DNA from: Fimbriimonadia bacterium | GTDB taxonomy: Bacteria; Armatimonadota; Fimbriimonadia; Fimbriimonadales; JABRVX01 | Length of the DNA stretch: 64,000 nucleotides | NCBI GenBank assembly: GCA_041483895.1 | Contig: JBGPGO010000004.1 | Location: 128,001 to 192,000 of the forward strand | Direction of reading: 5' to 3' | In this document: piece after piece, positions 7,903 to 30,694 of the stretch | Numbering within the stretch: position 1 is the first letter of the stretch | Layout: every line of letters begins with the position of its first letter | Translations under genes and position numbers: made by a program | Notes under the pieces: generated by a model | What the model was told of the DNA's origin: nothing | The model's database searches: none | The model's input: only the letters and a program-made list of their open reading frames with translations

Positions 7903-7931
7903 GGGAAGACATGATTACACATAGATTCTTA

Positions 7932-7998
7932 GAGACTCAGGAGACTCACGGAGGCTTAAGGGCATTTAGTGAGACTCAAGGAGATTCAGGAGAGTCAG
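7932..7998 (+). repeat. Iteron-like GAGACTCA repeats
   Basis: GAGACTCAG, GAGACTCAC, GAGGCTTAA, GAGACTCAA, GAGATTCAG and GAGAGTCAG, mostly at 9-10-bp spacing. Confidence 0.7.
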
Positions 7999-8048
7999 CG
8001 GGATCGCGCGTTCTTCAACTTTTGGAGTCCGACAAAGGAGGTGTGAAT

Positions 8049-9332: not shown

Positions 9333-9343
9333 GTGAGCGAAGA

Positions 9344-11230: not shown

Positions 11231-11241
11231 AATGCTTCAGC

Positions 11242-11759: not shown

Positions 11760-11787
11760 CCTATCGATAATGGTTCTTTTCGATAGG
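11760..11787 (+). repeat. Putative tyrosine-recombinase site 1 (11-6-11)
   Basis: CCTATCGATAA TGGTTC TTTTCGATAGG. Confidence 0.8.
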
Positions 11788-11826
11788 TCATCGCTCCAGT
11801 GAGCCCATTCTAGGCGTGGTCACCAA

Positions 11827-11895
11827 TTCTTGATGCAGTCTTGATACTTCCGGACTGATTGTTGATGCCTTCTTGTCGCAGTGCGACCGTACAAT
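11827..11895 (+). promoter_or_regulatory. kdp promoter region with putative KdpE direct repeats and a -10 box
   Basis: TCTTGATGCAG-TCTTGATAC (11-bp period) and GTTGATGCCTTCTTG. TACAAT at 11890-11895 lies 6 nt before an ATG. Confidence 0.55.
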
Positions 11896-11901
11896 TCAAT
11901 C

Positions 11902-11988
11902 ATGGAATTGGCCATCGTCGTCCTCATGATCATGCTCTTGGCCGCGTCTTACGGTCTGGTATGGCTGTGTGGCCGGTTGGAGGAATAG
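11902..11988 (+). CDS. Small hydrophobic peptide upstream of kdpF
   Basis: MELAIVVLMIMLLAASYGLVWLCGRLEE, 28 aa, single TM. Its 3' end contains the kdpF RBS (GGAGGA). Confidence 0.7.
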   Translation: MELAIVVLMIMLLAASYGLVWLCGRLEE

Positions 11989-11990
11989 AC

Positions 11991-12071
11991 ATGTACTGGG
12001 TCGCCGGTATATTGACCTTGCTGCTGTTGGGCTATCTGATCGAAGCCATGCTGGAACCGGAGCGATTCTGA
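11991..12071 (+). CDS. kdpF: K+-transporting ATPase subunit F
   Basis: MYWVAGILTLLLLGYLIEAMLEPERF, with the YL..A.L.PERF signature, coupled to kdpA. Confidence 0.9.
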   Translation: MYWVAGILTLLLLGYLIEAMLEPERF

Positions 12072-13768
12072 TGTCATCGGACTGGCTTCAAATCGCGATA
12101 TATGTCGTCCTGCTGATGATTCTCGCTGTGCCCCTTGGCGCCTATATGGCAAAGGTGCTCGAAGATCAGCGCACCTTTCTTTCTCCGGTGTTCGGCCCGA
12201 TCGAGCGGGTGCTCTATCGCCTGGGCGCAATCTCGCCGGAAGAGGGCATGGATTGGAAGACCTACGCGAAGGCTGTTCTTGCCTTCAGTTTCATCGGACT
12301 GGTGGTCGTCTACCTGCTGCAGCGGCTGCAGGGCAACCTGCCACTCAATCCCGCCAGACTTGGCCCCGTATCTCCTGACCTGTCCTTCAACACCGCGTCC
12401 AGCTTCGCAACGAATACGAATTGGCAGAGCTATGGGGGAGAAACGACCCTCAGCTATTTCACCCAGATGGTGGCGCTCACCGTTCAGAATTTCGTCAGCG
12501 CCGCAACCGGCATCGCGGTCTTGGCCGCGCTGATTCGCGGCATTCGCGGCAAGCAGATCCAGGCGATCGGCAACTTTTGGGCCGACCTAACGAGATCGAC
12601 AATTTACATCCTGTTACCGCTCGCAATACTCCTAAGCATTGTGTTCGTGTCCCAGGGGGTGGTTCAGACCTTCGATCCGTACGTCAAGGCGCTGACCCTG
12701 GAGGGCAAAGAGCAGGTGATTGCCGTCGGACCGGCCGCTTCCCAAATCGCCATCAAGCAACTAGGAACCAACGGCGGAGGGTTCTTCAATGTCAATTCGG
12801 CGCACCCATTTGAGAACCCAACACCTCTGACCAACCTTCTCAGCTGTCTCGCCATCCTATTGATCGGGGCGGGGGTCTGCCACACCTACGGGATCATGGT
12901 AAAGGATAGTCGACAGGGGTGGGCGCTCTTGACAGCGATGACAATACTCTTCCTACTCTTCGTCATCCCGTGCACCCGCGCGGAGCAGTCCGGCAATCCA
13001 CTGTTCGCCAAACTGGGCCTTGCCTCGACCGAGAACTGGGAGGGCAAAGAGGCGCGAATCGGAATCGGCAACTCTACCCTATGGGCGGTGGCCACTACCA
13101 GCGCGAGCAACGGTTCCGTCAACTCCATGCACGATTCGTACACCCCGTTGGGTGGCATGTTCCCAATGATCCTGATCCAGCTAGGGGAGGTGGTTTTTGG
13201 TGGCGTTGGGTCGGGCCTGTATGGAATGCTGATCTTCGCCGTAGTTGCCGTGTTCGTCGCGGGCTTGATGGTCGGACGTACGCCGGAATACCTCGGGAAG
13301 AAGATCGAGGCGTACGAGATGAAAATGGCGTCCGTGGTCATCCTAATCCCATGCGCGCTTGTGTTGCTCGGGACAGCCATCCCTCTCATGGCCGGCACGG
13401 GTCAATCCAGCATGGCAAATCCGGGCGCGCACGGTTTCAGCGAACTGCTCTACAACTATTCGAGCATGGGCAACAACAACGGTTCCGCCTTCGGCGGATT
13501 CAACGCGAACGTGCCGTTCCATAACATTCTGGGTGGAGTCGTCATGTGGATCAGCCGATTCTGGATCACCGTTCCCATTTTGGCCATAGCCGGATCGTTG
13601 GCAAGAAAGAAGACCACTCCTTCCGGTCCTGGCACCCTCGCAACACACTCGCCGCTTTTTATAACGCTCCTGATCTCGATTGTGTTGATCGTGGGAGCCT
13701 TGACCTTCATCCCTGCACTTGCGTTGGGTCCGATTGCGGAGCAGATAACTTATGCTACACAAAACTAA
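12071..13768 (+). CDS. kdpA: K+-transporting ATPase subunit A
   Basis: [34 protein letters not shown] and NNNGSAFGG selectivity motifs. Start MSSDWLQ via TGATG. Confidence 0.97.
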
Positions 13769-15821
13769 GGCGACGTCACTCTTCGAACTGTCGATTGTAC
13801 GACGAGCGGTCGGCGACTCGTTCAGGAAGCTCAACCCACGGTTGCAACTTCGAAATCCGGTCATGTTCGTCGTATACATCGCCTCGATCCTGACGACAGT
13901 CCTGTGGCTCCAATCGCTGGGCGGAAGCGGAGAGGCTTCGCCAGCGTTCATCCTATGGATATCGATCTGGCTCTGGTTCACGGTCCTCTTTGCCAACTTC
14001 GCGGAGGCGGTCGCCGAAGGGCGCGGCAAGGCGCAAGCTGACTCACTTCGTCAGGCACGGAAGGGCCTTACCGCCAAGAAACTTGACAAGCCCAGTCGCG
14101 ATTCCGAATGGACCGCGGTGGATGCATCCACGCTTCGGCGCGGAGATATCGTTCTGGCTGAAGCAGGCGACTTCATTCCTGGAGATGGCGACGTGATCGA
14201 AGGCGCAGCTTCTATCGATGAGAGTGCAATCACAGGAGAATCGGCCCCAGTTATCCGAGAATCAGGCGGGGATCGCAGCGCGGTTACTGGCGGAACGAGA
14301 GTGTTAAGCGATTGGGTCATCGTTCGCACGTCCGCCAATCCTGGAGAAAGTTTTTTAGACCGCATGATCGGCATGGTGGAAGGAGCGAAGAGGCAGAAGA
14401 CTCCGAACGAAATCGCGCTAAGCATCTTGCTTGCGGCGATGACGATCATCTTCCTACTCGCATGCGCCACCCTGCTGCCATTCTCGATATACGCCGCGAA
14501 CTCCGCCGGTCAGGGGAGCCCAATAACGGTCACCACACTGGTCGCGCTGCTCGTCTGCCTGATCCCGACCACGATTGGTGGTCTCTTGAGCGCGATCGGG
14601 ATCGCGGGTATGGACCGGCTGATGCGTAAGAACGTCATCGCGATGTCCGGCCGATCCGTGGAGGCGGCGGGTGACGTGAATGTGCTGCTGCTCGACAAAA
14701 CCGGGACCATCACGCTCGGAAATCGCCACGCCGTCGCTTTCCGATCCGCACCAGGAGTCGAGGAAAAGGAACTCGCTGAGGCGGCGCAGATGTCGTCCCT
14801 AGCGGATGAGACGCCGGAGGGCCGCAGCATCGTGGTCCTTGCCAAGGAGCAGTTCGGGATTCGCGAGGTCGACATTCAGGGGCTCGAGGCTCACTTTCAA
14901 CCGTTTTCCGCCCAGACGCGAATGAGCGGTATCAGCACGAACGGCCGTGAAATTCGCAAAGGCGCGGCGGATGCGGTCTGGAAGTGGGTTGAGGAATTGG
15001 GTGGCCACATGCCTCATCAGGTGGAAGCGGATATAGAGGACATCGCCAAAGAGGGTGGCACGCCGCTGGTCGTCGCGGAAAGGTCTCGCATCCTGGGCGT
15101 CGTCCATCTCAAGGATATCATCAAGGGTGGCATCAAGGATCGGTTCGCCGACCTGCGAAACATGGGCATTCGGACCGTGATGATCACGGGTGATAATCCG
15201 CTTACGGCCGCGTCTATCGCAGCGGAGGCTGGTGTGGACGACTTCCTTGCAGAGGCGACACCGGAAGCCAAGCTCCAACTGATTCGGGAATATCAGCAGG
15301 GCGGCCAACTGGTTGCGATGACCGGGGACGGCACCAATGATGCCCCTGCGTTGGCGCAGGCGGATGTCGCGGTTGCGATGAATACAGGTACGCAGGCTGC
15401 CAAAGAGGCGGGCAACATGGTTGACCTGGATAGCAATCCGACGAAGCTGATCGAGATTGTCGAGACCGGCAAGCAGCTCTTGATGACGCGTGGCGCGCTG
15501 ACGACATTCAGCATCGCCAATGATGTCGCCAAGTATTTCGCGATCATTCCGGCTGCCTTTGCGGGCATCTATCCGAAACTCGTGTTGCTTAATGTCATGG
15601 GCCTGAAGACGCCGGAAAGCGCGATTCTGTCGGCGGTCATTTTCAACGCCCTCATAATCATCGCGCTCATTCCTCTGGCGCTACGAGGCGTGGCGTATCG
15701 GCCAGTCGGTGCGGAAGCCGTCCTGCGGCGCAATCTGCTGGTCTACGGCGTTGGGGGCCTCCTCATCCCCTTTATCGGGATTAAGGCGGTCGACCTCATT
15801 CTAGGAGTATTCTATCGATGA
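13752..15821 (+). CDS. kdpB: K+-transporting ATPase subunit B
   Basis: TGES, DKTGT, TGDN, GDGTND and CLIPTT motifs. Confidence 0.98.
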
Positions 15822-16393
15822 AGACGTTGCGACAGGCGTTCATGCTATTCCTCGGCCTGACTATCCTAACCGGACTCGTCTATCCGCTCGCGATCACCCT
15901 GATCGCTAAGGGCGTTTTTCCAAGCCAAGCTGATGGGAGCCTCATTCGCCAAGGCGATCGGATCGTGGGATCGCGGCTGATCGGTCAGGAGTTCACGCAG
16001 TCCGGCTACTTTTGGGGCCGCCCCTCCGCGACGGCGGAGCACGCCTACAATGCGGCCGCCTCCAGTGGATCCAACCAAGGGCCGAACCATCCGGACTTCG
16101 AGAAGGCACTGCGCGAGCGCATCGATGTGCTCCGCCGAGCCGATCCTGGCAACCGAGCCAAAATCCCGACCGAACTGGTCACGGCATCCGGCAGTGGGCT
16201 CGACCCGCACATCAGCGTAGCTTCCGCCGAGTACCAGATCGGGCGAGTCTCGCGAGCACGGGGGATGTCCGATCAATTGCTGCGAAAGCTCATTGCGGAT
16301 CACACAGAGGGTCGCCAGTTCGGAGTTCTCGGTGAGCCTGTGGTCAACGTTTTGAAACTGAATCTCGCTCTTGATAAGATGGAGACGCGCTGA
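15818..16393 (+). CDS. kdpC: K+-transporting ATPase subunit C
   Basis: [15 protein letters not shown] and [11 protein letters not shown] motifs. Confidence 0.96.
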
Positions 16394-17424
16394 TGATTGT
16401 TATTGCAATTGGACAGGGATTGTTAAGCATTACGGCGTATCTGGATGCGTATTATCAGGTTGAGCCCCGAACGGCGGAGTACGGAAACCTGATCCCGTTG
16501 CGCCAATTCGACACAAAGAACCGGGAATTCCGAGTTGCCGCGGCACAGGTGGACATCAACTACAAGCAGGGCAATTTCGCTGCCTTGGTTTCGCCCTGGA
16601 TCGGCGATAATTCAGACGTTTTGGAGCGAACAAATCCGAAGCATAACGACGTGCTCGATCATTTCGCGCAAGCCTACGTTACCGTCGAGCGCTTGGATGT
16701 TGGAAAGTTCTATTCCTGGTGCGGCTACGAAAGCCCTGAGTCAAGGCTCAGCGATTGCTACAGCCGTGGCCTTCTGTACACCCTCGCGGAGCCGGTGTGG
16801 CATTTTGGCCTGCGATATGCGTGGAATCTCAATCCAGGTTGGAACGGGAGCTTTTATCTCGTTCCTGCCTGGAACCAATCTGAGAGTCCAACAGAATCGG
16901 TGGGAGCCGCGGCGCAAATTCATAGGAAGTTTGGGTCCGCCACAGATGTCACGATTGGATACATGCGCAGTGAAGAAGGCGACAGCTCCCCAAATGCGTT
17001 CGGCGGATACGGTGGCATCGGATTCCCGAAGCCGGGGTCGTCAAGAGTCGGCATGTTCGATCTGATCGCCACGCATGTTGCTTCGAAATCGCTGCGGCTG
17101 GTCTTCAATGCCGACTACGGCATGGCTTCCGAGGGCGCAAATAGCGGCGTTTGGCTGGGAGCGGCGGCGTATGCAATCTATACGACCGCCGATAAATGGC
17201 AGATCGTCGGCCGCGCCGAGAGCTTCGCGGATCGGAGCGGCAATCGGGTCGGCGTACCGGCGTCTCTGTTCGAGGTCACTCTTACAGTGTCCCACAATAG
17301 CGACGGCATCATCAAGCGCCTGGAGATCCGCCACGACCGGGCCAACCATGGCCTGTTCGCCGGCGAAGACCATCAGACGACGGTGAGCCTCAGTCTGGGA
17401 GTGACATGGCAAGCGTTGCGATGA
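16393..17424 (+). CDS. Putative outer-membrane beta-barrel porin in the kdp operon
   Basis: LDAYYQ, QAYV, DVGKFYS..GYE and LEIRHD patterns with alternating beta strands. Coupled to kdpC. Confidence 0.7.
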   Translation: MIVIAIGQGLLSITAYLDAYYQVEPRTAEYGNLIPLRQFDTKNREFRVAAAQVDINYKQGNFAALVSPWIGDNSDVLERTNPKHNDVLDHFAQAYVTVERLDVGKFYSWCGYESPESRLSDCYSRGLLYTLAEPVWHFGLRYAWNLNPGWNGSFYLVPAWNQSESPTESVGAAAQIHRKFGSATDVTIGYMRSEEGDSSPNAFGGYGGIGFPKPGSSRVGMFDLIATHVASKSLRLVFNADYGMASEGANSGVWLGAAAYAIYTTADKWQIVGRAESFADRSGNRVGVPASLFEVTLTVSHNSDGIIKRLEIRHDRANHGLFAGEDHQTTVSLSLGVTWQALR

Positions 17425-17843
17425 CTTCAGATCATTCGGCTCTTTTGGAACCCGTCAAGGTAATTACCTTTCGAATGCTATCCCATAACGCCATCATCGC
17501 CGTGCTCGATGCGGCCCGCAAGACCAGTACTGCGGTCGCGCTTGCGGTCATCGCCGATGACGCCGAAGCAATGCCGCTCAAACAGGCCTGGCGGGAACAT
17601 GTGGACCCCGTGGCGCCGGCGGTCCCGCTCTTCTTGCTGCACGCCAACCCCGACCGGGCCCAAGAGCGCACCGCGGAATATCTCGTGGAACTTCGGCATG
17701 TCTACCCTCGCCGGGAGATTGAAATCATCGTCGTCGCGAGCGGCATATCGAAAAACGAGGGCGTTGTTCCAAAATGGGTCAAGCAGCTTGACAAGGCTAT
17801 AGACGCACATGGAATTACCGACTACATTCTTCGCTTGGTGTAA
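17421..17843 (+). CDS. Small soluble protein, possibly related to the C-terminal domain of KimA/YdaO-type K+ transporters
   Basis: LKQAWREHV...VPLFLL...EYLVEL...IEIIVV pattern; lies between the porin and kdpD. Confidence 0.5.
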   Translation: MTSDHSALLEPVKVITFRMLSHNAIIAVLDAARKTSTAVALAVIADDAEAMPLKQAWREHVDPVAPAVPLFLLHANPDRAQERTAEYLVELRHVYPRREIEIIVVASGISKNEGVVPKWVKQLDKAIDAHGITDYILRLV

Positions 17844-17846
17844 CAA

Positions 17847-20513
17847 GTGACCGATAGAAGACCGGACCCGGATGCCCTGATTGTGGAACTTCGCACGAAA
17901 GAGGCGACGCCCGGTCATGGTCGTTTGAAGGTCTATTTGGGGATGGCGGCGGGTGTGGGGAAGACCTATGGAATGCTCGCCGACGCGCAAGAAGCAAGGC
18001 GGCGGGGACTGGATGTGGCGATCGGGTACCTAGAACCTCATGGCCGCCAGGCGACCGAAGCGCTCGCAGCAGGATTGGAACGCATCCTGCCGGTAGAGGT
18101 CGAGCATCGGGGCCTGATGCTCAAGGAATTGGATTTGGATGCGGCGCTTAAGCGACGGCCTGAATTGATGCTCGTCGACGAACTTGCCCACACCAATGCG
18201 CCGGGAATGCGGCACAAGAGGCGCTGGCAAGACGTGGAAGAGCTCTTGCGGAGCGGGATCGATGTCGCAACCACCGTCAACATCCAGCATTTGGAAAGCC
18301 TGCGAGATGTCGTCGCTCAGATTACCGGGATATTCGTCCAAGAGACAGTGCCTGACTCTCTCATCAATTCTGCCGATCAGATTGAGCTGGTGGACCTGCC
18401 GCCCGAAGACCTGATCCGACGGATCGAGGAAGGCAAGGTCTACGTTCCTGAGAAGGTCCAGATCGCGTTGGAAGGGTTTTTTAGGGCTGGAAACCTATCC
18501 GCACTAAGGGAGCTGGCTCTTCGCAGGACAGCGGAGCACGTCGACGAGCAAATGCGCGGATTCCGCCAAGCTGCCACGGAACCTTGGCACACGACAGAAC
18601 GGATTATCGTCTCCGTCGCTCCCAATCGGCTTGCTGCTCGCGTAGTCCGCGCCGCTGCCCGAATGGCGAACAGCATCCATGCCGATCTGATTGCTGTTTT
18701 CGTGGAAAGTCATCGCCAGGCGACCGTCACAACACGAGGCCGTGATCTGGCGGCCGACGCCTTGCGGTTAGCCGAGTCTCTCGGCGCGGAGACGGTGATC
18801 CTGAGCGGAGAGGATATTGTGCAGGAGTTGATTCGCCTGGCGAGAAAACGGAATGCTCCCACTATCGTCGTCGGCAAGCCGATCCGCCCGCGTTGGCGAG
18901 AGATCATCTTTGGCTCTGTTGTAGACGAACTGATCCGAGAAAGCGGCGACATCAATGTCTTCGTCATTACGGGAGCGGCAGAGACCGGAACGATTCTTCG
19001 CGTCGCACCACCGCCAAAGCCTGGTGATATCAAGACTTTCGGCGCGACAATCGGGATTGTCGGTTTCTGTACAATCCTGGTCGCCATGCTCTATCCCTAC
19101 TTCGCCCCGGCCAATCTCTCCATGATCTACCTGCTTGGCGTTACGATGACAGCCGCTCGTTATGGGCAGCGGGAAGCGGTGCTCGCCTCGCTGCTCAGCG
19201 TCTTCGCATTCGATGTCTTGTTCGTGCCGCCGAGATGGACGCTGGCCGTCACCGACGTGCAATATGTGATGCTGTTTGTCGTGATGCTGATTGTATCACT
19301 GCTGATCAGCACCCTAACGGCTCGCCTGAGAATGCAATCGCAAGCAGCTTCCGAAAGAGAACGCAGGACGGCCGCGCTCTATGATCTGAGCCGCCGCTTG
19401 GCCGCCACGCGGGGAAGAAAGGACTTGGGGCAGGCGACTGTCGAAAAAGTGCGGGAGCTGTTCGATTGCGATGCATGTGTCCTCTTAAGCGATTTGGAGT
19501 CGCATGAATTGCAGCCGATGCCGGGTTCGCTGACCGGATTTGAGCAGTTGGCGAACGAAACTTTGGTCGCCCGCTGGGTGGCCGATCACATGACGCGAGC
19601 CGGTCATGGAACCGATACTTTGGCCGGCGCCGCGGCAACCTATTTCCCATTGGTTGCCGATGAAAACAGTGTCGGTGTTCTTGCAGTCGCCCTCAACGAA
19701 GCTCTTCTGCAAGACCAGGCCTCTATCCACCTGCTCGAGACTTTCGCCAGCCAACTCGCGACCGCAATCCATCGGGCGAATTTGGCAAAGCACTCTCATG
19801 TCGCAGCGCTGCAAGCGGAAACCGAACGGCTTCGGTCCAGCCTGCTCAGCAGCGTATCCCATGACCTTCGGACGCCGCTGGCCGTGATCGAAGGATCCGC
19901 GGAATCTCTCATGTCGAGCGAAAATACGGACGATAAGCAGCGAGGTCTGGCCGCGGCGATTCGAGATGAGGCACGGCGCCTCGGTCGGTTGGTCCGAAAT
20001 CTATTGGATATGACCCGAATGGACTCGGGGGCGGTCGAATTGAATCGGGATTGGCAGTCCCTCGAGGAGTTGGTCGGGGCGGCCCTCAGTCGTACGGAGC
20101 CGGTCCTGGGAGACCGCAATGTAATCGTCCATCTTGCGGAAGAATTGCCGTTGGTGTATGTGGATGGTGTCCTGTTGGAACAGTTGCTCGTGAACCTGTT
20201 GGAAAACGCGAGCCGGTACACGCCTCCGGGAACTAGAATCACGATTTCCGCGGAAAGCCATGAATCGACAATACGGGTCACAGTCGCCAATAATGGACCT
20301 CCACTTGCCTCGGGTGAAGAGGATGCGATCTTCCAGAGGTTTCATCGCAAGGCGACCGACGGCGATCGGGGATTCGGGCTCGGATTGGCCATCTGCCGCG
20401 CGATTGCGGAAGCGCACGGTGGGACGATCATTGGTCGGAACGTTGAGACCGGTGTCGAGTTTGTCATCACGTTGCCGTTGCCGAAGGCTCAGCCGGAAGT
20501 ACGAGATGAGTGA
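17847..20513 (+). CDS. kdpD: Sensor histidine kinase KdpD
   Basis: GMAAGVGKTY, VDELAHTN, a Usp-like region, 4 TM segments, SHDLRTPL and GFGLGL. Confidence 0.97.
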   Translation: MTDRRPDPDALIVELRTKEATPGHGRLKVYLGMAAGVGKTYGMLADAQEARRRGLDVAIGYLEPHGRQATEALAAGLERILPVEVEHRGLMLKELDLDAALKRRPELMLVDELAHTNAPGMRHKRRWQDVEELLRSGIDVATTVNIQHLESLRDVVAQITGIFVQETVPDSLINSADQIELVDLPPEDLIRRIEEGKVYVPEKVQIALEGFFRAGNLSALRELALRRTAEHVDEQMRGFRQAATEPWHTTERIIVSVAPNRLAARVVRAAARMANSIHADLIAVFVESHRQATVTTRGRDLAADALRLAESLGAETVILSGEDIVQELIRLARKRNAPTIVVGKPIRPRWREIIFGSVVDELIRESGDINVFVITGAAETGTILRVAPPPKPGDIKTFGATIGIVGFCTILVAMLYPYFAPANLSMIYLLGVTMTAARYGQREAVLASLLSVFAFDVLFVPPRWTLAVTDVQYVMLFVVMLIVSLLISTLTARLRMQSQAASERERRTAALYDLSRRLAATRGRKDLGQATVEKVRELFDCDACVLLSDLESHELQPMPGSLTGFEQLANETLVARWVADHMTRAGHGTDTLAGAAATYFPLVADENSVGVLAVALNEALLQDQASIHLLETFASQLATAIHRANLAKHSHVAALQAETERLRSSLLSSVSHDLRTPLAVIEGSAESLMSSENTDDKQRGLAAAIRDEARRLGRLVRNLLDMTRMDSGAVELNRDWQSLEELVGAALSRTEPVLGDRNVIVHLAEELPLVYVDGVLLEQLLVNLLENASRYTPPGTRITISAESHESTIRVTVANNGPPLASGEEDAIFQRFHRKATDGDRGFGLGLAICRAIAEAHGGTIIGRNVETGVEFVITLPLPKAQPEVRDE

Positions 20514-21198
20514 TCGCATGACGATTGCCATCATCGACGACGAGCTGCCCATGCGGCGTCTCCTTCGGGCGGGGCTTGCGGACGGAGTCCGCCTGGTAGA
20601 AGCCGAAACCGGCGAGGCGGGAATCGGATTGGTGGCGCAGGAGAATCCGGATGTCGTTTTGCTGGATTTGGGGCTGCCGGATATCGATGGAATCGAGGTT
20701 GCAAAGCGCATCCGCGAGTGGACCGATGTGCCCATCATTGTCCTCTCCGCCCGCGGGCAGGAGCGTGACAAGATCGCCGCGCTAGATGCCGGTGCGGACG
20801 ACTATCTCACAAAGCCGTTTGGCATCGGGGAGCTGCAGGCGCGGATTCGGGTCACGTTGCGCCACGCGGAACGCGCAAAGGGGCCGAATCCAGAAGCGCT
20901 ATTTGAATCGGAAGGACTTCGCATCGATCTAAGCGCGCGACAAGTGTTTGTTGAAGACTCCGAGATCCATCTAACCCCGATCGAGTACAAACTGCTGTCG
21001 ACATTGGTGCGGCATGCGGGACTGGTCGTTACTCACAAGCAATTGCTGACGGAAGTCTGGGGGCCGGCCTATGCTTATGAGGTGCACTACCTGCGGGTAT
21101 ACATGGCCCAACTCCGCCACAAAATCGAGAGCAATCCCGCACAGCCGCGCTATCTGACCACAGAAACTGGGATCGGGTATCGCCTGCGCTTCACGTAG
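20506..21198 (+). CDS. kdpE: Response regulator KdpE
   Basis: LLDLGLPD, GADDYLTKPF and HYLRVYMAQLRHK...TETGIGYR. Confidence 0.95.
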   Translation: MSDRMTIAIIDDELPMRRLLRAGLADGVRLVEAETGEAGIGLVAQENPDVVLLDLGLPDIDGIEVAKRIREWTDVPIIVLSARGQERDKIAALDAGADDYLTKPFGIGELQARIRVTLRHAERAKGPNPEALFESEGLRIDLSARQVFVEDSEIHLTPIEYKLLSTLVRHAGLVVTHKQLLTEVWGPAYAYEVHYLRVYMAQLRHKIESNPAQPRYLTTETGIGYRLRFT

Positions 21199-21230
21199 AC
21201 AGTTTGGATGAGGTCGGCGCGAGGCGCTAC

Positions 21231-21258
21231 GGTATCGATAATGGCGATTTTCGATAGG
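21231..21258 (+). repeat. Putative tyrosine-recombinase site 2 (11-6-11)
   Basis: GGTATCGATAA TGGCGA TTTTCGATAGG. Confidence 0.8.
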
Positions 21259-21306
21259 AAATTAGTTCAAGTGACGCGACAAGAGTCTCCGCAATTTCGT
21301 AATTTG

Positions 21307-22422: not shown

Positions 22423-22748
22423 GGACTCGGATTCTAGCAGAGTGCTCGGGCCGGGGTTTCTTCGAATAAGTCTTGGGGCTCATCAATTTCCGCCCTGACC
22501 TAACGGCTCCAAGAATGGATTGAAAACGCCTACCCTACCCCGAAGTAGTTTACCGCGAGCAATGACAGCAAATGAGTTTGCTACGGCTGGCGTGCAATCG
22601 ACCGATTCGGTCTCGACTAATTTTGCCCTGTATTGCATTGTGGCTAGGGCTGGTCCCCGATGATTCTGCCCCGGTAAGCGATTAATTGTCGGTTACTGAC
22701 ATTGCCCCAACGGATGCAACCGTGCGTTTCTTGACCCTATTCTACGGA

Positions 22749-23696: not shown

Positions 23697-23713
23697 GGTT
23701 CTTGCCTCCCTTT

Positions 23714-23741
23714 GGTATCGAAAAGGGCCATTATCGATACC
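23714..23741 (-). repeat. Putative tyrosine-recombinase site 3 (11-6-11), directly upstream of the recombinase RBS
   Basis: Minus strand GGTATCGATAA TGGCCC TTTTCGATACC. Confidence 0.8.
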
Positions 23742-23855
23742 AACACGACATGTACCAGGAGGGGGCGGATACATCCAGTCCCGCGCTCTTGAAGGCTAGC
23801 GGTTTCAGTGTAAAATGGATTGTAGTAGCCGATAGTAACGGCTTGGAGGAAGTCA

Positions 23856-24563
23856 GTGGAGTTGGTTCTACGGTCAAGGGGCTCGGGATATTCTCTTCGC
23901 AGATTCATTCTCTACGTTCTCTTCGCATCAACGAGAGACGATTTTGAATTGCGCCGCCAACCAAGACCCAGCGAGGCCGGCCGCAACTGGAAGGCAGCCA
24001 CAGACCTGGAACTTGTTGCAGGGCTCCGGTCGGGGGAACACGGCGCTAGCGCCGAGTTCGTCCGGCGGTTCGAGAAGCTCGTAACATACATTGCCTACGG
24101 CCACACTTATGAGAAGGAGGAGGTCGAGGATCTCGTACAAGATGTTTGGGTGGTCCTCTCGCGCGGCAACTGGCGGACGGTCTGCGCTTGGGAAAACAAG
24201 TGTCCACTCTCAAGCTACGTGTCCGTGATCACAACCCGCGTGGTTCGCGCCCGGATGCGACGTCGACCTAACGAAGTCTCAATCGAGGAGCTGGACGCTG
24301 AACCCGTGGATTCCACCGTCATCGTTGAACCGCTTCTGACGTCACAGCAGGCAGAGACGATTCAGTTTTGCATCCGGCAACTTTCGGCGAAGCAGCAGCT
24401 CGTGCTAAAGCTACGAATCGTCGATGGAGCGGACCATATCGAGATCGGTCGGTTGCTTGGCATTTCGCCGACGACATCAAGGAAACGACTGTTTGACGCA
24501 CTTCGGAAGCTGGCAAAACTGATCCCCGAAGTCGATCCGAGTTTGATGGAGCTGGAGATATAA
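23856..24563 (+). CDS. ECF sigma-70 factor (start uncertain)
   Basis: Region 2 EVEDLVQDVW; region 4 IRQLSAKQQLVLKL...EIGRLLGIS...RKRLFDA. Confidence 0.85.
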   Translation: MELVLRSRGSGYSLRRFILYVLFASTRDDFELRRQPRPSEAGRNWKAATDLELVAGLRSGEHGASAEFVRRFEKLVTYIAYGHTYEKEEVEDLVQDVWVVLSRGNWRTVCAWENKCPLSSYVSVITTRVVRARMRRRPNEVSIEELDAEPVDSTVIVEPLLTSQQAETIQFCIRQLSAKQQLVLKLRIVDGADHIEIGRLLGISPTTSRKRLFDALRKLAKLIPEVDPSLMELEI

Positions 24564-25127
24564 ATGCGCTTTCCTTGGAGCAAACGGGAAGACCTTGACG
24601 CGCTGGAGCGCATCATCAGTGGCGAGACTTCGGAGCAAGAGGCCGCGGAATTCGCCGTAACCATCGCCCGATCCGAAAAAGCTAGGCGTGCGATTGTTCC
24701 ATTGGAGAAGGCCGGCAGATTGGTTTCGGTGGCCGGTTCTGACATCTCTCCGTCCGAACATCTTAGCAACAATGAGCTGGCCGAGTGTATTGCCGGTGAC
24801 GTGTCGCCGATTGTCAAAATGCGAAGGGAGGCTCATTTGGCCTCTTGCGATGAGTGCCGGGCGGTGTTCGTGCGAGCGACGGCGGCCTACCGCGTGTATG
24901 CGGAGAATGTGCGCCCGCCGTTCCGCCGCGCCATCCGCGGCATATTGCTACCCCTTAGCCTGGGGATCGTGCCCGGGATCTTCTTCGGCATCTATCTGCT
25001 TGGTTATTTTCTATCGCCCTTCGATCCCCCTTGGCTCGCCCCACTTGTGAACAGTCCCTGGATCGTAGTCTTCGGGCTGGCATCAGCCGTAGTCGCGGTG
25101 ATGATCCTTCTTAGGAAACGTTGGTGA
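24564..25127 (+). CDS. Zinc-binding anti-sigma factor with two TM helices
   Basis: HLS...EAHLASCDECR (HxxxCxxC) followed by two hydrophobic segments. Confidence 0.8.
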   Translation: MRFPWSKREDLDALERIISGETSEQEAAEFAVTIARSEKARRAIVPLEKAGRLVSVAGSDISPSEHLSNNELAECIAGDVSPIVKMRREAHLASCDECRAVFVRATAAYRVYAENVRPPFRRAIRGILLPLSLGIVPGIFFGIYLLGYFLSPFDPPWLAPLVNSPWIVVFGLASAVVAVMILLRKRW

Positions 25128-25657
25128 AGTGGATCGCGCTATGCGTCGGCGCCGTTCTTGCGAGCGTCATGTGGGTGACTGTCACGAGGCTCGCGCTCAA
25201 CGCCTCCCATTTCCAGGACCTGGAACCGATGTCCGCACTCCAGATACGGTCCGCGCCGTATCGTCAAAGATCCGCAATGCGATATGGCTTCGGCGGAATG
25301 CTCCCTCGGCCCGCAGGCGTCCAAGATCGCATCCGTCTCACGTTCGAGAGCGAAGGAAGGTTTGAGGTTCAGATCCTGTTCCGCGACGGTGAGGGCGACA
25401 TGGTCTTCCCAGGATTGGTCGACGAGATGACCGGGCGTTTCATGTGCGGCCCACACCTCGCCGCCGTCGAGTTCCCCTACCTCAACGCAGTGCGCGGCAT
25501 GCTGCACGGTCCGGCGCTGGTGAGTGGAAGGCCCGCCGTTTACGTCGAGGTGGAAGGCCTTCGGTGGGTGGCCGAACGGAACGACTATGCGCCCGTCGCC
25601 GGCTTCCGCTGGCAAGGCATGCTTCCGTCGGAGGGAGGGCCGTACGGTGGCCGCTAG
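25124..25657 (+). CDS. Membrane-anchored hypothetical protein, paralog 1 of 4
   Basis: N-terminal TM; GLVDEMTGRF...GMLHGPALVSGRPAVYVE...WQG. Confidence 0.75.
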   Translation: MKWIALCVGAVLASVMWVTVTRLALNASHFQDLEPMSALQIRSAPYRQRSAMRYGFGGMLPRPAGVQDRIRLTFESEGRFEVQILFRDGEGDMVFPGLVDEMTGRFMCGPHLAAVEFPYLNAVRGMLHGPALVSGRPAVYVEVEGLRWVAERNDYAPVAGFRWQGMLPSEGGPYGGR

Positions 25658-26180
25658 AATCCCTATCTTGATATCCGTAGTCGTCTCGTTGTTGGTGGCG
25701 ATCTGCTTCGTCGTCTTTGCACGAGCGAGGATCGAGACATTCAAGTATGCCGGCCTTCCCGTAATGTCCGAGGCTGCGTTGAGACGCGCTCCGTTCGATT
25801 GGCTGCTCTTCGTCCGTCATTCCGCCTACCTAAAGGAGTTCGCAGGGCGTAATCTTGTACAGGTGACGGAATACGAAGGCAAGGTGGGCGTAATGCCCGG
25901 CATTGCGGATGGGCAGGGCTTGCCCTTGATAGTAGGCCCGATAGATCAGAAGACCGGCCGTTTCCGCGCCGACCTCTCTCCCGCAAGCGGCAAGTATCCC
26001 TACTTCGATCGAGTGGAAGGGGTGCTCCACGGCCCAGGGCTGGTGAACGGTGCTCCGTGCGTTTATGTCGAAATGCGCTCGGAGTGGGCGGGGATCTACG
26101 AGAGAGCCCATCCACACTTCCGCTCGATCGGCTGGTCCGGGGTCTTTCGGAGTTGCCGCGAGGTCTCCGTCATGCCATGA
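25647..26180 (+). CDS. Membrane-anchored hypothetical protein, paralog 2 of 4
   Basis: GTG start after GGAGGG; GPIDQKTGRF...GVLHGPGLVNGAPCVYVE...WSG. Confidence 0.75.
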   Translation: MAARIPILISVVVSLLVAICFVVFARARIETFKYAGLPVMSEAALRRAPFDWLLFVRHSAYLKEFAGRNLVQVTEYEGKVGVMPGIADGQGLPLIVGPIDQKTGRFRADLSPASGKYPYFDRVEGVLHGPGLVNGAPCVYVEMRSEWAGIYERAHPHFRSIGWSGVFRSCREVSVMP

Positions 26181-26683
26181 TCGGCAAGTTGCTGGCTCTC
26201 GGTCTTGCTTGCTGCTTGACGGCTACGATGCTCGTGATCGCCGTCCATTCGTTCGTCGTGCACCCTTATCTCGGCAAGCTTGCCACCAAGTCGGAGGGCG
26301 AGGTGAGGCGCGCCCCGTTCATCCTCACCGACCTGAAACGAACGCCTTTCGTTGGCGTCCTCCACCGACCGGATGGCACTCCTGATATAGTTAGTATACG
26401 CTGGACGCTCTATGCCTCCGTGAACGTGTCGATACGATTCGGACATGGCGAGGGCGATGTGACGTTTGCCGGGATGATCGATCCGGAGACAGGCGAGTTC
26501 CGTTGCGGCCCGCACGCCGCCGCGATGAGCTTCCCCCATTTCTATCACTTGGTCGGCAGGTTGCGCGGACCGGGCTTGGTTGCTGGCAAACCGATTGTGT
26601 ATTTCGAAGGGAAAGGCCTTCCCGTGGAGGGTCCAGTTCGCCCCGGATATTCATGGAAGGGCTTTCTGACGTGGAGGCCGTAA
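26177..26683 (+). CDS. Membrane-anchored hypothetical protein, paralog 3 of 4
   Basis: ATGA-coupled; GMIDPETGEF...GRLRGPGLVAGKPIVYFE...WKG. Confidence 0.75.
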   Translation: MIGKLLALGLACCLTATMLVIAVHSFVVHPYLGKLATKSEGEVRRAPFILTDLKRTPFVGVLHRPDGTPDIVSIRWTLYASVNVSIRFGHGEGDVTFAGMIDPETGEFRCGPHAAAMSFPHFYHLVGRLRGPGLVAGKPIVYFEGKGLPVEGPVRPGYSWKGFLTWRP

Positions 26684-27213
26684 TCCGCCCCGCGCGGCTG
26701 TTGATCGCTTTGGTCCTGTTCCTGACTGGAGCGGGATTGATAGCCGCCGCGCTCGTTGTGGCATTCCACGGCTATGCATCGGCGACGCGATTCGAAGGCC
26801 TTCGAACAAGGACGATCACGCAACTTCGATACGCCGTGTTTTCGCCACGACTGGCTGGGAGGTGGCATTGGCGCGGGGTCTGGCCGGGGCGCGAGATCAG
26901 GAAGGCCGACGTAACGATCGCCGGCGATAATACAATCACATTCCGCCTGACTCCTACCGAGGACATTCAGTTGCCGCAGTGTAGTGGGATTCTGTCGTCT
27001 GATGGCAGCTTTGACATCGGTCCGATTCTGGCGAAGATCGGTTCCCTTCGCTTTGACGCGATCGTGGGCCGGGTCCGTGGACCGGCGTTGGTCGACGGTC
27101 AGCCGCAGATCTGGCTTGAGGCGCAGACGGTCCTGAAACGCCGCCCGGTGTTCGCTGGGCGGGTTAGATTGTATCGGTGGTCGGGAACACTCGCCGCAAC
27201 GGGTCGGACCTAG
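26671..27213 (+). CDS. Membrane-anchored hypothetical protein, paralog 4 of 4
   Basis: N-terminal TM; GILSSDGSF...GRVRGPALVDGQPQIWLE...WSG. Confidence 0.7.
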   Translation: MEAVIRPARLLIALVLFLTGAGLIAAALVVAFHGYASATRFEGLRTRTITQLRYAVFSPRLAGRWHWRGVWPGREIRKADVTIAGDNTITFRLTPTEDIQLPQCSGILSSDGSFDIGPILAKIGSLRFDAIVGRVRGPALVDGQPQIWLEAQTVLKRRPVFAGRVRLYRWSGTLAATGRT

Positions 27214-27360
27214 CGCACAAAATCATCGGTGCGTCGATAAGTAACGCTGGGCGCTTGGCGAGGCACCTATTGAGATGGAACAAGCTAGTTCGGGAACGAT
27301 TCCACTACAGGCACGCCGTTGTAGAGCAGGATATCCGAACCGCTAAACAGGAGGTTCCGG

Positions 27361-30300
27361 ATGTCATCGAGCCGATTTTTGACCGTCATTGTGGGTATCG
27401 CCGCGACTGCGTCTGTGGTCGCGCATGACTTCGTAGACGAATTCAACGGCAATTCGGTGGATACTTCCCTGTGGACCGTTGACACAGGTCAGGGTGTCGT
27501 GTCAGTCGCGAACGGTTTCCTGTCCTTATCTGCACCATCCAGCGCCTCGGGGTTCCCAGCGCTGACCTGCGCGACCAACCCGTTTGCCGCCGGTAGTTGG
27601 ACATTCGAGATCAGAATGCGCTACACAAACCTACACGGTGGGCATGGGGACGGCGTCGAACTGTTTCGAAGCCCAGACGGTGACGGAAGTCCCTACAAAA
27701 CGATCATCTGGCAGGACCTCAACAATTTGGCCTTCTTTTGTTCGAACACGCTCATGTTCGTGATCTCGGGAGGGGATACGGAGTGGCATACGTATCGGCT
27801 CGTATACACGGTTGAACAGAATGTGTTCGCGGCCTATGTCGATGAAGTGAAGCGGGGAGAAGTCCCAGCGGAGGCGCAATGCGACACGATAAGGATCGGG
27901 AATCCGAGGTCCGGATGCTGTAACGGCTGGAACTCCTTTGACGTCGACTATGTTAGGATCACTCCCGCCGAAGATACGTGGCACGTCAACCCGGCCAATG
28001 GCCATCTGTACAAGCGGACGGATACCATGAACTGGAAGGACGCCAGGCGGCAGGCCGTGCTGTGGGGTGGGCAATTGGTCACAATCAACGATCAAGCGGA
28101 GCAGGACTGGCTCCTCCAGACCTTTGGCGACAGCGAAGACCTGTTCATCGGCCTGCGCGATGTCAAGCCGCCGCTCCAGAAGTGGCGGTGGGAGTCTGGC
28201 GAGGCGGTCAGCTACACGAATTGGAACACTGGAGAACCCACAGATACAGTTGCCGAGCCGGTTGTCATGCTTAATAATGGATTAGCCGGCAAATGGAACA
28301 ACGTGCCGATGAGCTTTTTGGCGCGCGGCATCGTCGAGCGGACGCCACCTCAAGTTCAGCGACTGGCGGTGGGTTCCGACGGCGCGACCGTCACCTCTGA
28401 CCCGCTGGAGCCGGGCAAGCGATACGTTATTGAGGCTTCTGGAAGCTGGCAGATCGCTCTTGACGGCCGACTGGCCGACGCGAACTATTGGCGAGATCAG
28501 GACGGAGTTTGGCGGGAAAAGAGCGCTCCTGGACTCCTGGTAAACAATCAGAATGTCGCTTGGATGGGGTCCCCCGAAGGCGTATATTATGCGACGCACA
28601 CCTACTCGCCATCTCACGTCTATCGGTATATCGTCGTCGGCAACGGCGAGCCCATATCGTTCCGCGTGAACGATACACAGTACGACGACAACTTCGGCGG
28701 GTTGCAGGTAAGGATCTATTCGCCCGTGCCGACAACGGGTACACAGGCTGACGCGCTATGGCCGTTGCACTACGTCGATCGTAACAACACGGGCTTTTTT
28801 CCATGGGCCATTGGGCCAGATGTTCCTCAGGTACGCTGGTCGCTGCCTAACGTCGGTTTGGCCGTCCTAGTCTCAAGCAATGGTAATGTTTATTGCCTTT
28901 CAAATGCAGCACTACAATGCTTTAGCCCGGATGGCTTACTCCTTTCTCAGGCGACACTGCCAGGCAGCCAAATAAGCATTGGCGGCGTTATCGGAGCGGA
29001 CGGCTCGGTCTTCCTGCTGGCACACCAATACATCGCCGCCTTTGATGAGAATCTCAACCTGCGCTGGCAATATTCAGATGGGGGCTTGTGCGGCCCTGTT
29101 GTAGACGACGCCGGCAACCTGTACTATGGTGGCTGGTTCGGCGGGGGTCAACTTTATTCACGAACCCCCTCAGGCCAGCTAAGCTGGTCCCTTCCTTTGT
29201 CTGAAGAGATGTTCCCTCGCATGGTCCTCGGCCCAGATAATCTGATCTATTTGAAGGCTCTTCATTCGCCCCGAATCTACGTGTTCTCCATCGACGGCCA
29301 GTCTCTAGGCAATTTCGACGGGCGCGGAAACGGGGGCATGACGCCGGTTTTCGATAGCGATGGCACGTTCTACACGACGACCGCCGACGGCATGCTCCAT
29401 TGCTTTAACCCGGACCGGACGCCTCGCTGGGAACAGAATATCGGAGCGACGGTTGATACCACCCTTGCTCTTGCGCCCGACCACAGAGTCGTTAGCCAGA
29501 CGTTTTCGAGTGGATTACTCCTAAGCTTCTTGTTCGATGGAACTCAACTGTGGTCCACGCCCCAGGACGCCTCCGCCTATCAACATATCCGGCTCGACGC
29601 GCAGGGAACGGCAACGAACGCGAACTTTGCGAATCGTATCTGGTCCGTAGACTTCATGGGTAGCCCGATGTGGAACCAACAGTTCGCAGGAACAGATATG
29701 ATCGCATCGCACGTTATTGGACCCGACGGCACGATCTACGCGACTGCGGGAGGGCTCCTGGGCACACTCTACGCCATCGGCCCAGGCTCGCCAGTGCTCC
29801 AGGAAACCTTCCTAACCATTGATAACACCACAATTAAACGCGGTGAGACTGCGGACCTCGCCGCTCGACTGGCATTGGGTAGAAACTCCGGCGGGGCGAG
29901 AAATCGCACCGTCCGGTTCTACATAGATCACGTGGTATTAGGCCAGGCGGTGACCGACTGGCGCGGTATCGCAACGTTGCCCTATGCCGCGCCGAGCAAT
30001 ATGGCGATCGGACCACATGTCTTGACCGCGAACTTCGATGGCGATACGAATTTTTGGAACTGCGAAGGCGACGGCACACTATACGTTCGCCGCCCCGTCA
30101 GCCAAGTGGAAGGCCAGATCTTCTTGGAGAACTACGAACCCGACCCGACTGGGCAGTCCATCACCTTCGAATTGCTCGACGGCGGCGGACAAACGTTGGC
30201 CGACACCGTAGCCATCCTGGATTCCACGGGCCATTATTCGTTTGAAATGACATACGAAGGACCTTGTTCACTCCGGGCGAAAGGCAGCCACTGGCTCAGC

Positions 30301-30531
30301 TCAGTCGTCTCAGGCCTCAATCTGTCCGAATCAGCGCCGGCCATCGCCAACATGCAACTGCCAAATGGTGACGCCGATGGCGACAATCTAGTAAGTCTCA
30401 TTGACCTGAACCGGATTCTCATTGAGTTCACATCGACTGCATCTACCGACACCGATCTGGATGGATCTGGAAAAGTGGATTTGCCTGACCTAAATATCGT
30501 CTTCTTGAACTTTGCAAGGGCCGGTCAATGA
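27361..30531 (+). CDS. Large secreted multidomain protein (ConA-like, C-type lectin, PQQ-type propeller, Ig-like, dockerin-like tail)
   Basis: Signal peptide; C-type lectin motifs LVTINDQAEQDWL, YTNWNTGEP and KWNN; repeated DG...RW propeller blades; KGSHWL; GDADGDN and DLDGSG Ca-loop pair. Confidence 0.85.
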   Translation: MSSSRFLTVIVGIAATASVVAHDFVDEFNGNSVDTSLWTVDTGQGVVSVANGFLSLSAPSSASGFPALTCATNPFAAGSWTFEIRMRYTNLHGGHGDGVELFRSPDGDGSPYKTIIWQDLNNLAFFCSNTLMFVISGGDTEWHTYRLVYTVEQNVFAAYVDEVKRGEVPAEAQCDTIRIGNPRSGCCNGWNSFDVDYVRITPAEDTWHVNPANGHLYKRTDTMNWKDARRQAVLWGGQLVTINDQAEQDWLLQTFGDSEDLFIGLRDVKPPLQKWRWESGEAVSYTNWNTGEPTDTVAEPVVMLNNGLAGKWNNVPMSFLARGIVERTPPQVQRLAVGSDGATVTSDPLEPGKRYVIEASGSWQIALDGRLADANYWRDQDGVWREKSAPGLLVNNQNVAWMGSPEGVYYATHTYSPSHVYRYIVVGNGEPISFRVNDTQYDDNFGGLQVRIYSPVPTTGTQADALWPLHYVDRNNTGFFPWAIGPDVPQVRWSLPNVGLAVLVSSNGNVYCLSNAALQCFSPDGLLLSQATLPGSQISIGGVIGADGSVFLLAHQYIAAFDENLNLRWQYSDGGLCGPVVDDAGNLYYGGWFGGGQLYSRTPSGQLSWSLPLSEEMFPRMVLGPDNLIYLKALHSPRIYVFSIDGQSLGNFDGRGNGGMTPVFDSDGTFYTTTADGMLHCFNPDRTPRWEQNIGATVDTTLALAPDHRVVSQTFSSGLLLSFLFDGTQLWSTPQDASAYQHIRLDAQGTATNANFANRIWSVDFMGSPMWNQQFAGTDMIASHVIGPDGTIYATAGGLLGTLYAIGPGSPVLQETFLTIDNTTIKRGETADLAARLALGRNSGGARNRTVRFYIDHVVLGQAVTDWRGIATLPYAAPSNMAIGPHVLTANFDGDTNFWNCEGDGTLYVRRPVSQVEGQIFLENYEPDPTGQSITFELLDGGGQTLADTVAILDSTGHYSFEMTYEGPCSLRAKGSHWLSSVVSGLNLSESAPAIANMQLPNGDADGDNLVSLIDLNRILIEFTSTASTDTDLDGSGKVDLPDLNIVFLNFARAGQ

Positions 30532-30639
30532 ATCAACGGCCTCGCATTAGGAGCGAAACCATGCGTTTGCTGGTGCGAGTCGTTGATGGAAGCGCATTGA
30601 GACATTAGCGGGATCGCGCCACCAACCCTGATCCCCGCA

Positions 30640-30667
30640 GCTATCGATAACGTCCATTATCGATAGG
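30640..30667 (-). repeat. Putative tyrosine-recombinase site 4 (11-6-11)
   Basis: Minus strand CCTATCGATAA TGGACG TTATCGATAGC. Confidence 0.8.
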
Positions 30668-30694
30668 ACCGGGCCGCGCATCCGGTTCTAGCGT

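Follow-up and report, generated by a model that had tools for sequence, protein, structure and literature searches.

The 64-kb window analysed here (positions 128001–192000 of contig C4) comes from the 3.95-Mb, 58% GC genome assembly of a Fimbriimonadia bacterium from sediment (G000, 43 contigs). It carries a gene for a Xer-like tyrosine recombinase and, around it, four short palindromic sites that mark off large blocks of genes. We are inclined, with modest confidence, to the view that the palindromes are the sites of this island-borne recombinase, and that the gene modules are exchanged between sister elements at joints that have the same spacer.

The sites were first described in an earlier note, made from the letters of the window alone, as four exact, intergenic 28-bp sequences with an 11-6-11 build. 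The degenerate pattern given there, TATCGATAATGGNNNTTWTCGATA, was searched against the window and 100 shuffles of it. It matches at 11762–11785 and 21233–21256 on the forward strand and at 23716–23739 and 30642–30665 on the reverse strand (polarity + + - -), which makes four matches against an expectation of zero, with none in any of the shuffles. Direct reading of the sequence agrees with the pattern scan, both for the 28-bp build and for the spacers (TGGTTC, TGGCGA, TGGCCC and TGGACG) and outer dinucleotides as quoted, and the gene map places all four sites between genes. The inner arm bases are ATAA and TTTT, or TTAT in sites of the ACG class, the classes being named here after the last three bases of the spacer. 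Site 1 lies 114 nucleotides (nt) past the stop codon of the DUF6941 gene and about 115 nt ahead of a short kdpF-like open reading frame (ORF), and site 2 starts 32 nt past the stop codon of kdpE. Site 3 is 18 nt upstream of the recombinase ATG (23696), with a GGGAGG ribosome-binding site in between. Site 4 sits between the convergent 1056-aa gene and hsdR, which adjoins an ACG-class site in the island on contig C7 as well.

The recombinase is intact, as had been claimed. Both of its domains are recognised (PF00589, 66 bits; the N-terminal SAM-like PF02899, 27 bits), and the six catalytic residues R165, K188, H260, R263, H287 and Y296 are all present, are invariant in six aligned family members, and align with those of the P. 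abyssi XerA-like protein 4a8e. In sequence, a P. abyssi XerC-like/XerA protein is the closest one with a solved structure. With the R-K-H-R-H-Y set and a SAM-like N-terminus, the protein has the hallmarks of a Xer-type tyrosine recombinase in the broad sense. It does not reach the NCBIfam equivalog cut-offs for XerC (104.9 against 335), XerA (97.3 against 220), XerD (86.5 against 330) or XerS (58.9 against 267). By these scores it is Xer-like, but falls outside every curated equivalog tested. With 19.9 and 18.8 bits, the integron-integrase models fall far short of their cut-offs (265 and 435).

That site and enzyme belong together is indicated by their linkage, in this genome and in others. 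All four recombinase copies in G000 that keep their 5' end have a CCC-class site 18–20 nt from the start. An identical 34-nt string, TTGGTATCGATAATGGCCCTTTTCGATACCAAAG, stands upstream of these four copies; the adjoining genes are 84–87% identical in DNA. In the sister genome G001 a 72% homolog has GGTCACGATAA-TGGTCA-TTTGCGTGACC at the same place, with arms that differ from those of G000. The layout there is the same as in G000: GGTACA flank, site, ribosome-binding site, ATG. G001 contains three such sites, and G002 has two related sites, inverted, around a truncated homolog; the GGTACA/AGTACA flank is found in both genomes. In G000, the conserved flank distal to site 3 (the A-box in Table 1) is common to the four CCC sites and to a hybrid site at C11:100276, described below. 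The A-box may be the promoter of the recombinase or an accessory part of the site.

Among more distant homologs (34–48% identity), an 11-6-11 palindrome is found within 400 nt upstream in 27 of 64 non-self loci, a count to be read with the knowledge that five further matches are dubious and that many contigs are too short upstream to judge. These palindromes usually lie 60–220 nt from the gene and represent about 14 distinct site sequences, in which the inner core CGATAA-TGG...-TTTTC is common and the outer arms vary. The strict G000 motif is absent from all 40 same-order relatives searched. When the other 227 genomes in the order are searched, G001 and G002 alone, both from the same family, have a homolog at E<=1e-60; at E<=1e-40, one is present in 26 of 400 other genomes of the phylum. 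The nearest homologs are named Fimbriimonadia. A metagenome search for close homologs returned 38–51% relatives only, the homologs at about 70% being reached solely through G001.

Because the site lies about 20 nt from the start of the gene, and because homologs have co-varying 11-6-11 sites, the palindrome is very probably the recombinase's own target, as the earlier note proposed. Binding, catalysis, spacer compatibility and any present-day activity are inferred. In all 23 homolog loci tested, of which eight extend over more than 13 kb, the site is single-copy; G243 contains a single site, and in G077 two genes are accompanied by three. One gene with one adjacent site is therefore the norm of the family, and the array of about 28 sites a peculiarity of this genome.

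Two further observations concern the wider family. In L003, L004, L011, L013, L014, L016, L023 and L025, a homolog of about 36–45% identity adjoins a conserved upstream gene ending ...WVYYEAEKK. No palindrome is present between that gene and the homolog in these loci, which come from several Armatimonadota genera. The pattern is suggestive of a housekeeping-like part of the family that is passed on vertically. The only other genome_contigs record with a strict site is L001 (10001–10024), a contig from an Acidovorax metagenome-assembled genome, where the site lies inside a longer palindrome and no recombinase homolog is found within 10 kb of it.

The four sites had been taken for a private device of this locus, and here the earlier description has to be widened. 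The genome has 14 copies of the strict pattern and none of a reversed-pattern control. A relaxed scan, which allowed up to four mismatches to the 21 specified bases and from which two weak matches on C9 and C12 were excluded, gave 28 distinct accepted sites in eight regions, on C1 (two), C2 (two), C4, C6, C7 and C11. The spacer is always TGG followed by CCC, ACG, CGA, TTC/TTG/TTA, ACA or CTG. Two half-sites at contig ends (C34:242 and C9:80614), with the left arm and TGGCGA but no right arm, are likely coding coincidences and were not counted. The six-site array on C11 and the two arrays on C2 (three sites each) all run in one direction. The islands are on contigs of 155–525 kb, with tRNA and integrase borders.

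The recombinase gene is also repeated. There are three full genes (one in the window and two on C7), with about 90–91% protein identity and all catalytic residues present, and five fragments, on C11 (two), C6, C1 and C2. In pairwise identities, the G000 copies are closer to one another than to the G001 copy. Of the 28 sites, 23 have a recombinase gene or gene fragment at most 12 kb away, and the other five have none. A scatter of the motif independent of the recombinase, one of the outcomes that the earlier note said would refute its reading, is thus seen for the smaller part of the sites and not for the larger. The genome contains further Xer-like genes, namely two that are XerC/D-like (on C14 and C13, with the best Phage_integrase scores) and two phage-type integrases.

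Some of the fragments have neighbours of their own interest. On C1, a SIR2-SAVED defence-type gene (195982–197589; L091:17982–19589) follows directly after the truncated recombinase copy. On C2, at about 60830–61160, the recombinase fragment has 64 codons and is separated by about 60 nt from a tRNA-like sequence (identified by eye); it appears to be what is left of an element at a tRNA.

A comparison of the islands shows what the sites separate. With the recombinase pointing right, the islands of C4 and C7 have a common order: hsdR, ACG site, cargo, CCC site, recombinase, a variable gene, inverted CGA site, cargo (in C7 with an extra ACA site), inverted TTC site, and backbone. The mirror-symmetric layout described earlier is a backbone architecture that is conserved and is found in the C7 island too. 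An inverted CGA-class site downstream of the recombinase and one variable gene is found in C7, C11 and C6 as well. The backbone to the left of site 1 is homologous to the C11 and C7 islands, where the homologous blocks adjoin TTN-class sites, and the homology ends at site 1.

The cargo differs from island to island. Where C4 has kdp, C7 has OsmC/acyl-CoA dehydrogenase/MetE genes and also a phosphoesterase block, and where C4 has the ECF block, C7 has TPR/cyclase-NB-ARC and malectin blocks; the cargo of the ACG-CCC slot in the two C7 islands is unrelated to the ECF module. The slot that in the window holds a 371-aa gene is filled by unrelated genes in other islands. Elsewhere the cargo includes an RND efflux set, a 2540-aa protein with IS21, Rieske/cyclase genes, a Tricorn-like protease and glycoside hydrolases. 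The sole related cargo consists of the C4 and C1 blocks, which are distant, collinear paralogs in the same ACG-CCC slot.

Homology on the recombinase side stops 14–41 nt past the CCC site in all pairwise comparisons, and that between C11 112233 and 133047 stops 2 nt past the site. The 20-nt left flanks fall into two groups: group A comprises the four CCC sites, and group B, CAGCAATCCnAAGACC, the TTN sites and one CTG site. The right flanks are unrelated, the recombinase gene itself excepted. The sites thus coincide with the borders of gene modules, as had been supposed, and homology at them is one-sided across islands. At the hybrid site C11:100276 the left flank is of type A (17 of 20 positions as at the CCC site of the window), the spacer is CGA and the right side is unrelated. 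Read from its sequence, it would record the outcome expected when a site of CCC type crosses over with one of CGA type.

We hypothesise that the ancestral unit of this protein family would have been the recombinase gene with one adjacent site, and that the site would have multiplied to about 28 copies within a family of integrated mobile elements. The sites would now be the joints at which conserved backbone meets slots of variable cargo; one side of the backbone has methylases, the other a restriction system with a primase. Each joint would have its own spacer (TGG and TTC, CGA, CCC or ACG). The two sites of a module would probably be incompatible with each other, and each joint would be compatible with its counterpart on a sister element. 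The likely mechanism is one that has been proposed for the dif modules of Acinetobacter: a first crossover between same-spacer sites would fuse two elements, and a second, at another same-spacer pair, would separate them again with the slot exchanged.

Such a two-step scheme differs from the one first put forward, in which the enzyme captures, excises or inverts cassettes through the sites that flank them. In the window, the flanking spacers are TTC and CGA around kdp, and CCC and ACG around the ECF block, with three of six positions different in each case. Simple excision is unlikely because the two flanking sites of a module have different spacers. According to the available excerpts of PMC11705084, Xer excision needs direct repeats with identical centres, and no recombination was seen between Xer sites without closely related central regions. 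The same excerpts state that the sites around accessory genes in Acinetobacter plasmids usually have opposite polarity or a divergent centre, with no excision, and that they form cointegrates with same-centre sites on another replicon, after which a second event would exchange the block. Where the spacers of two sites are identical or nearly so, inversions and deletions between them have been detected experimentally (PMC13141974, in excerpt). Excision or integron-like capture of the window modules through their own flanking sites is thus unlikely on this analysis, and no product of either, or of inversion, appears in the contigs described below. The spacer order conserved in C4 and C7 would be more readily explained by two-step exchange among sister elements than by integron-like capture.

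One pair of sites should be mentioned separately. On C7, inverted ACG-class sites at 55701 and 61751 bracket an hsdR segment between mirror-image 'ACG-cargo-CCC-recombinase' units, and this is where inversion between identical spacers is most plausible.

A bolder form of the proposal, which we put forward tentatively and would ourselves call doubtful, is that the locus represents an 'addressed' cassette exchange. One Xer-like recombinase would act on ordered, mutually incompatible sites, and sister elements in one cell would swap slots, up to entire operons (kdp, for example), with their backbones unscrambled. We are equally tentative about the code that would provide the addresses, in which arms and TGG half-spacer are the same and three bases (TTC, CGA, CCC, ACG, ACA or CTG) differ.

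Several results weigh against exchange between sister elements, and they are collected here. Around the two clusters on C1 and C2, which comprise five sites, no recombinase gene is present out to 140 kb. Five of the eight recombinase copies are truncated, so that much of the system is in decay. The hybrid site is the only one of its kind found. In an all-against-all blastn of the eight regions, which returned backbone and recombinase matches only, none of the cargo blocks has a second copy at the DNA level; with no cargo in two contexts, the classic proof of module mobility is lacking. The paralogs are old (about 84% DNA identity), and the point at which homology stops could partly reflect the loss of alignable neutral sequence: neutral flanks have perhaps diverged past alignment, and the sequence after the recombinase stop codon, which was searched for a second site, is not conserved either. 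The shared order of spacers could be plain inheritance from a duplicated ancestor. A freely active enzyme with distant same-spacer sites would, moreover, give large inversions or deletions.

Metagenome contigs were also consulted. Twenty-one sediment metagenome runs hold part of the stretch, and the Logan contigs of four of them (X1–X4) were aligned to 11001–31000. They show the reference arrangement only, bridged at site 1 in three runs, at site 2 in three and at site 4 in one. No recombination product and no joint at any site was found in these four runs, at a depth of about 5x and in contigs that drop rare variants; the junction circles and inversions which the earlier note had suggested looking for are likewise missing from them. 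At this depth, and with rare variants lost, the contigs say nothing on activity, and no other result of the analysis points to current movement of the modules. They stop at 23714, as expected from the repetition of the recombinase-plus-site unit in the genome. A joint from 23177 to 23742 with 34 extra letters was considered as a rearrangement and turned out to be the C11 paralog. The remaining joints are at low depth and away from the sites.

Among the alternatives, the one that survives best, though we think it rather unlikely, is that the sites are fossil junctions, the scars of past tandem insertions or fusions of related integrative elements whose shuffling no longer works. The truncated recombinase copies would fit this, as would C11, whose genes can be read as partial elements placed in tandem, with an inserted IS21. 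So would the divergence of about 15% between paralogs, and contigs in which no variant arrangement is seen. Against it, three intact recombinase genes retain all catalytic residues, and thirteen sites are still exact over the 21 specified bases, the CCC sites being identical over 34 nt. Such identity despite about 15% divergence in the neighbouring sequence points to continued selection.

The integron-like scheme, in which each module is a cassette that is excised as a circle through flanking direct repeats and reinserted whatever the spacer, appears clearly unlikely. It would account well for the arrangement of sites 1 and 2, and of sites 4 and 3, as direct repeats around complete gene sets, and for the one-direction arrays on C11 and C2, which repeated insertion of circles would give. 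The invariant TGG, the first three bases of the spacer, could suffice for one strand exchange, and the hybrid site, with its CCC-type and CGA-type halves, implies that unlike spacers have recombined at least once. The scheme has to contend with spacers that differ at half of their positions at both modules, contrary to the Xer rule in the excerpts of PMC11705084. In addition, the contigs contain no circle junction or empty site, no attC-like folded site is present, the integrase models score far below their cut-offs, and no cargo was found twice.

It is highly improbable that the palindrome is an operator, a terminator or another hairpin signal at the borders of gene blocks, and no recombination site. 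Sites 1, 2 and 4 do lie just downstream of genes, site 3 is where an autoregulatory operator would be, and a weak promoter-like match (CTGACC-17-GATAAT) overlaps site 1. Hairpins of -8 to -20 kcal/mol are predicted at the sites, although that of site 2 is no better than shuffled sequence (z = -0.2). No terminator-like call falls on any of the four sites and no T-run follows them, and the terminator reading was therefore rejected; nor do the sites match any RNA family in Rfam. The asymmetry of the arms (GATAA against GAAAA) and the invariant TGG are features of dif-type protein sites, not of stems, and the 11-6-11 build co-varies with the recombinase across genomes. Site 3 may possibly serve as an operator in autoregulation of the recombinase, which is compatible with a role in recombination. 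We also consider it very improbable that the sites are served by a housekeeping XerC/XerD-like pair, as in Acinetobacter, with the island recombinase incidental: the Xer-like genes on C14 and C13 and the five sites without an island recombinase nearby would allow it, but the site arms track the island recombinase (those of G001 and G002 differ, and those of the 34–48% homologs differ again) and the motif is missing in all 40 relatives without this recombinase.

The earlier note recognised no named system in this layout. It does resemble a known one: the closest described system is that of the dif (pdif) modules of Acinetobacter, including the 'dif module islands' on its chromosomes (PMC12907356, in excerpt). 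A dif module site is defined, in the available part of PMC6449649, as 28 bp with two 11-bp arms and a 6-bp centre, the inner arm bases forming a conserved palindrome, and the sites described here share this build, the conserved inner arm bases and the variable centre. As in Acinetobacter, they part unrelated accessory blocks from a conserved backbone and form linear multi-module arrays, and the sites that flank one module usually differ in their centre, exchange there presumably proceeding via fusion of two replicons at same-centre sites (excerpts of PMC11705084). The differences are equally clear. The enzyme here is probably a dedicated single recombinase, encoded in the island with a site at its own start, and not the host XerC/XerD pair. 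The elements are integrated on large Armatimonadota contigs, and are not Rep_3/OrfX plasmids. Array sites mostly run in one direction, and do not form the alternating C and D modules described in the excerpts of PMC11705084 and PMC13141974. Finally, a comparison of the eight regions revealed no module that stands in two contexts. In its available text, PMC13141974 calls the dif module system unique to Acinetobacter, and our literature search found dif-module papers for that genus only.

The second group of relatives comprises XerS/difSL of streptococci and lactococci, XerH/difH of Helicobacter and XerA/dif of archaea, each with one Xer-like enzyme and a site beside its gene; for XerS, the linkage of site and gene is described in the consulted parts of PMC1914069, PMC2731167 and PMC5357621. 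The homologs, with their single-copy sites, have the arrangement of such single-recombinase units. G000 departs from it, with about 28 sites and eight gene copies or fragments in mobile islands, in addition to its two XerC/D-like genes, and the recombinase scores far under the cut-offs of the XerS and XerA models.

There is also some likeness to integrons, in that a tyrosine recombinase stands next to gene blocks separated by sites, with a special site beside the recombinase gene. The attC sites of integrons are folded structures of 60–140 nt, unlike the short double-stranded dif-type palindromes seen here, which include no folded attC. The integron-integrase models barely match, the modules are operon-sized and have their own regulators, and the orientation of the cargo is not uniform. 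Judged by these sequence features, the locus is no integron.

Shuffling of genes by dif-type sites has so far been described for Acinetobacter only, where it spreads antibiotic resistance genes, needs the two Xer proteins of the host, and has a debated mechanism. Here there is an unrelated phylum, one dedicated enzyme, sites that differ in three spacer bases, and operon-sized modules. If our reading is true, such building of mobile elements would be more general than thought, and one protein with short sites would provide a simpler model for how spacer identity controls the exchange of blocks. Addressed exchange, if true, would be a natural counterpart of recombinase-mediated cassette exchange with heterospecific lox/FRT sites, and would mean that shuffling of the dif-module type exists outside Acinetobacter and runs on its own enzyme.

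The features of the window are listed in Table 1.

Table 1 Sites, recombinase, cargo and backbone of the island in the 64-kb window (window coordinates)
Feature	Position	Strand	Description
Left backbone block	6191..11646	+	MT-A70 methylase, ParB-methylase fusion, HTH protein, three uncharacterised ORFs, DUF6941 protein
Site 1	11760..11787	+	CCTATCGATAA-TGGTTC-TTTTCGATAGG; class TTC; border of conserved backbone (left) and kdp cargo (right)
kdp cargo module	11902..21198	+	bounded by sites 1 and 2
kdpF-like short ORF	11902-11988	+	read by eye from the sequence
kdpA	11969-13768	+	ORF limits; Pfam
kdpB	13752-15821	+	Pfam
kdpC	15818-16393	+	Pfam
BBP2 porin	16393-17424	+	between kdpC and kdpD
145-aa ORF	17406-17843	+	between kdpC and kdpD
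kdpD	17847-20513	+	Pfam
kdpE	about 20510-21198	+	Pfam
Site 2	21231..21258	+	GGTATCGATAA-TGGCGA-TTTTCGATAGG; class CGA
371-aa gene	21307-22422	-	low-GC stretch (0.518); slot between recombinase stop codon and site 2
Xer-like tyrosine recombinase	22749-23696	-	315 aa, intact; Phage_integrase and Phage_int_SAM_1
Site 3	23714..23741	-	GGTATCGATAA-TGGCCC-TTTTCGATACC; class CCC; recombinase-proximal
A-box	23742..23782	-	conserved flank distal to site 3; ...GGTACATGTCGTGTTGG
Second cargo module	23856..30531	+	between sites 3 and 4; Pfam
ECF sigma factor	23856-24563	+	Pfam
Four ORFs without family	24564-27213	+	
Lectin/Ig-like surface protein	27361-30531	+	1056 aa; Pfam
Site 4	30640..30667	-	CCTATCGATAA-TGGACG-TTATCGATAGC; class ACG; border with type I restriction-modification backbone
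Right backbone block	30695..42329		hsdR, DUF4268/PDC-S11, hsdS, hsdM, Prim-Pol/AAA_25 primase, serine recombinase, tRNA-Glu
tRNA-Glu	42253-42329	-	

The whole kdp regulon was said to lie between sites 1 and 2, and the set is indeed complete, from the kdpF-like ORF to kdpE. A complete potassium-uptake regulon can thus occupy a site-bounded slot of a mobile element. Among 30 relatives, kdpB is present in one (G019, 73% identity), a second match of 31% being weak, which shows that kdp is patchily distributed in the order. The kdp locus of G019 is without the BBP2 (OmpL-like) porin and 145-aa genes, and no 11-6-11 sites flank it.

The recombinase does lie between the two modules, as first described, but the 371-aa gene between it and site 2 had been overlooked. 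This gene has no match in Pfam, PHROG, NCBIfam or PADLOC, and hypothetical clusters only in the Atlas. GC composition does not single out the modules, with the exception of the 371-aa gene and the restriction-modification block.

The window island as a whole has the look of an integrated mobile element. A perfect direct repeat of 15 nt, TGGTACCCCGGACGG, occurs at 2076–2090 and at 42253–42267, where it is the 3' end of the tRNA-Glu. The two copies, which show no similarity beyond these 15 nt, may be the two ends of an integrated element of about 40 kb containing all four sites. Beside the tRNA, the serine recombinase is divided between two ORFs (40633–41253 and 41374–42282, with Resolvase and Zn_ribbon_recom domains) and may be a frameshifted large serine recombinase. 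It is worth adding that the DUF4268 gene in the type I operon (33687–34685, reverse strand) matches the candidate defence family PDC-S11 with E=2e-111.

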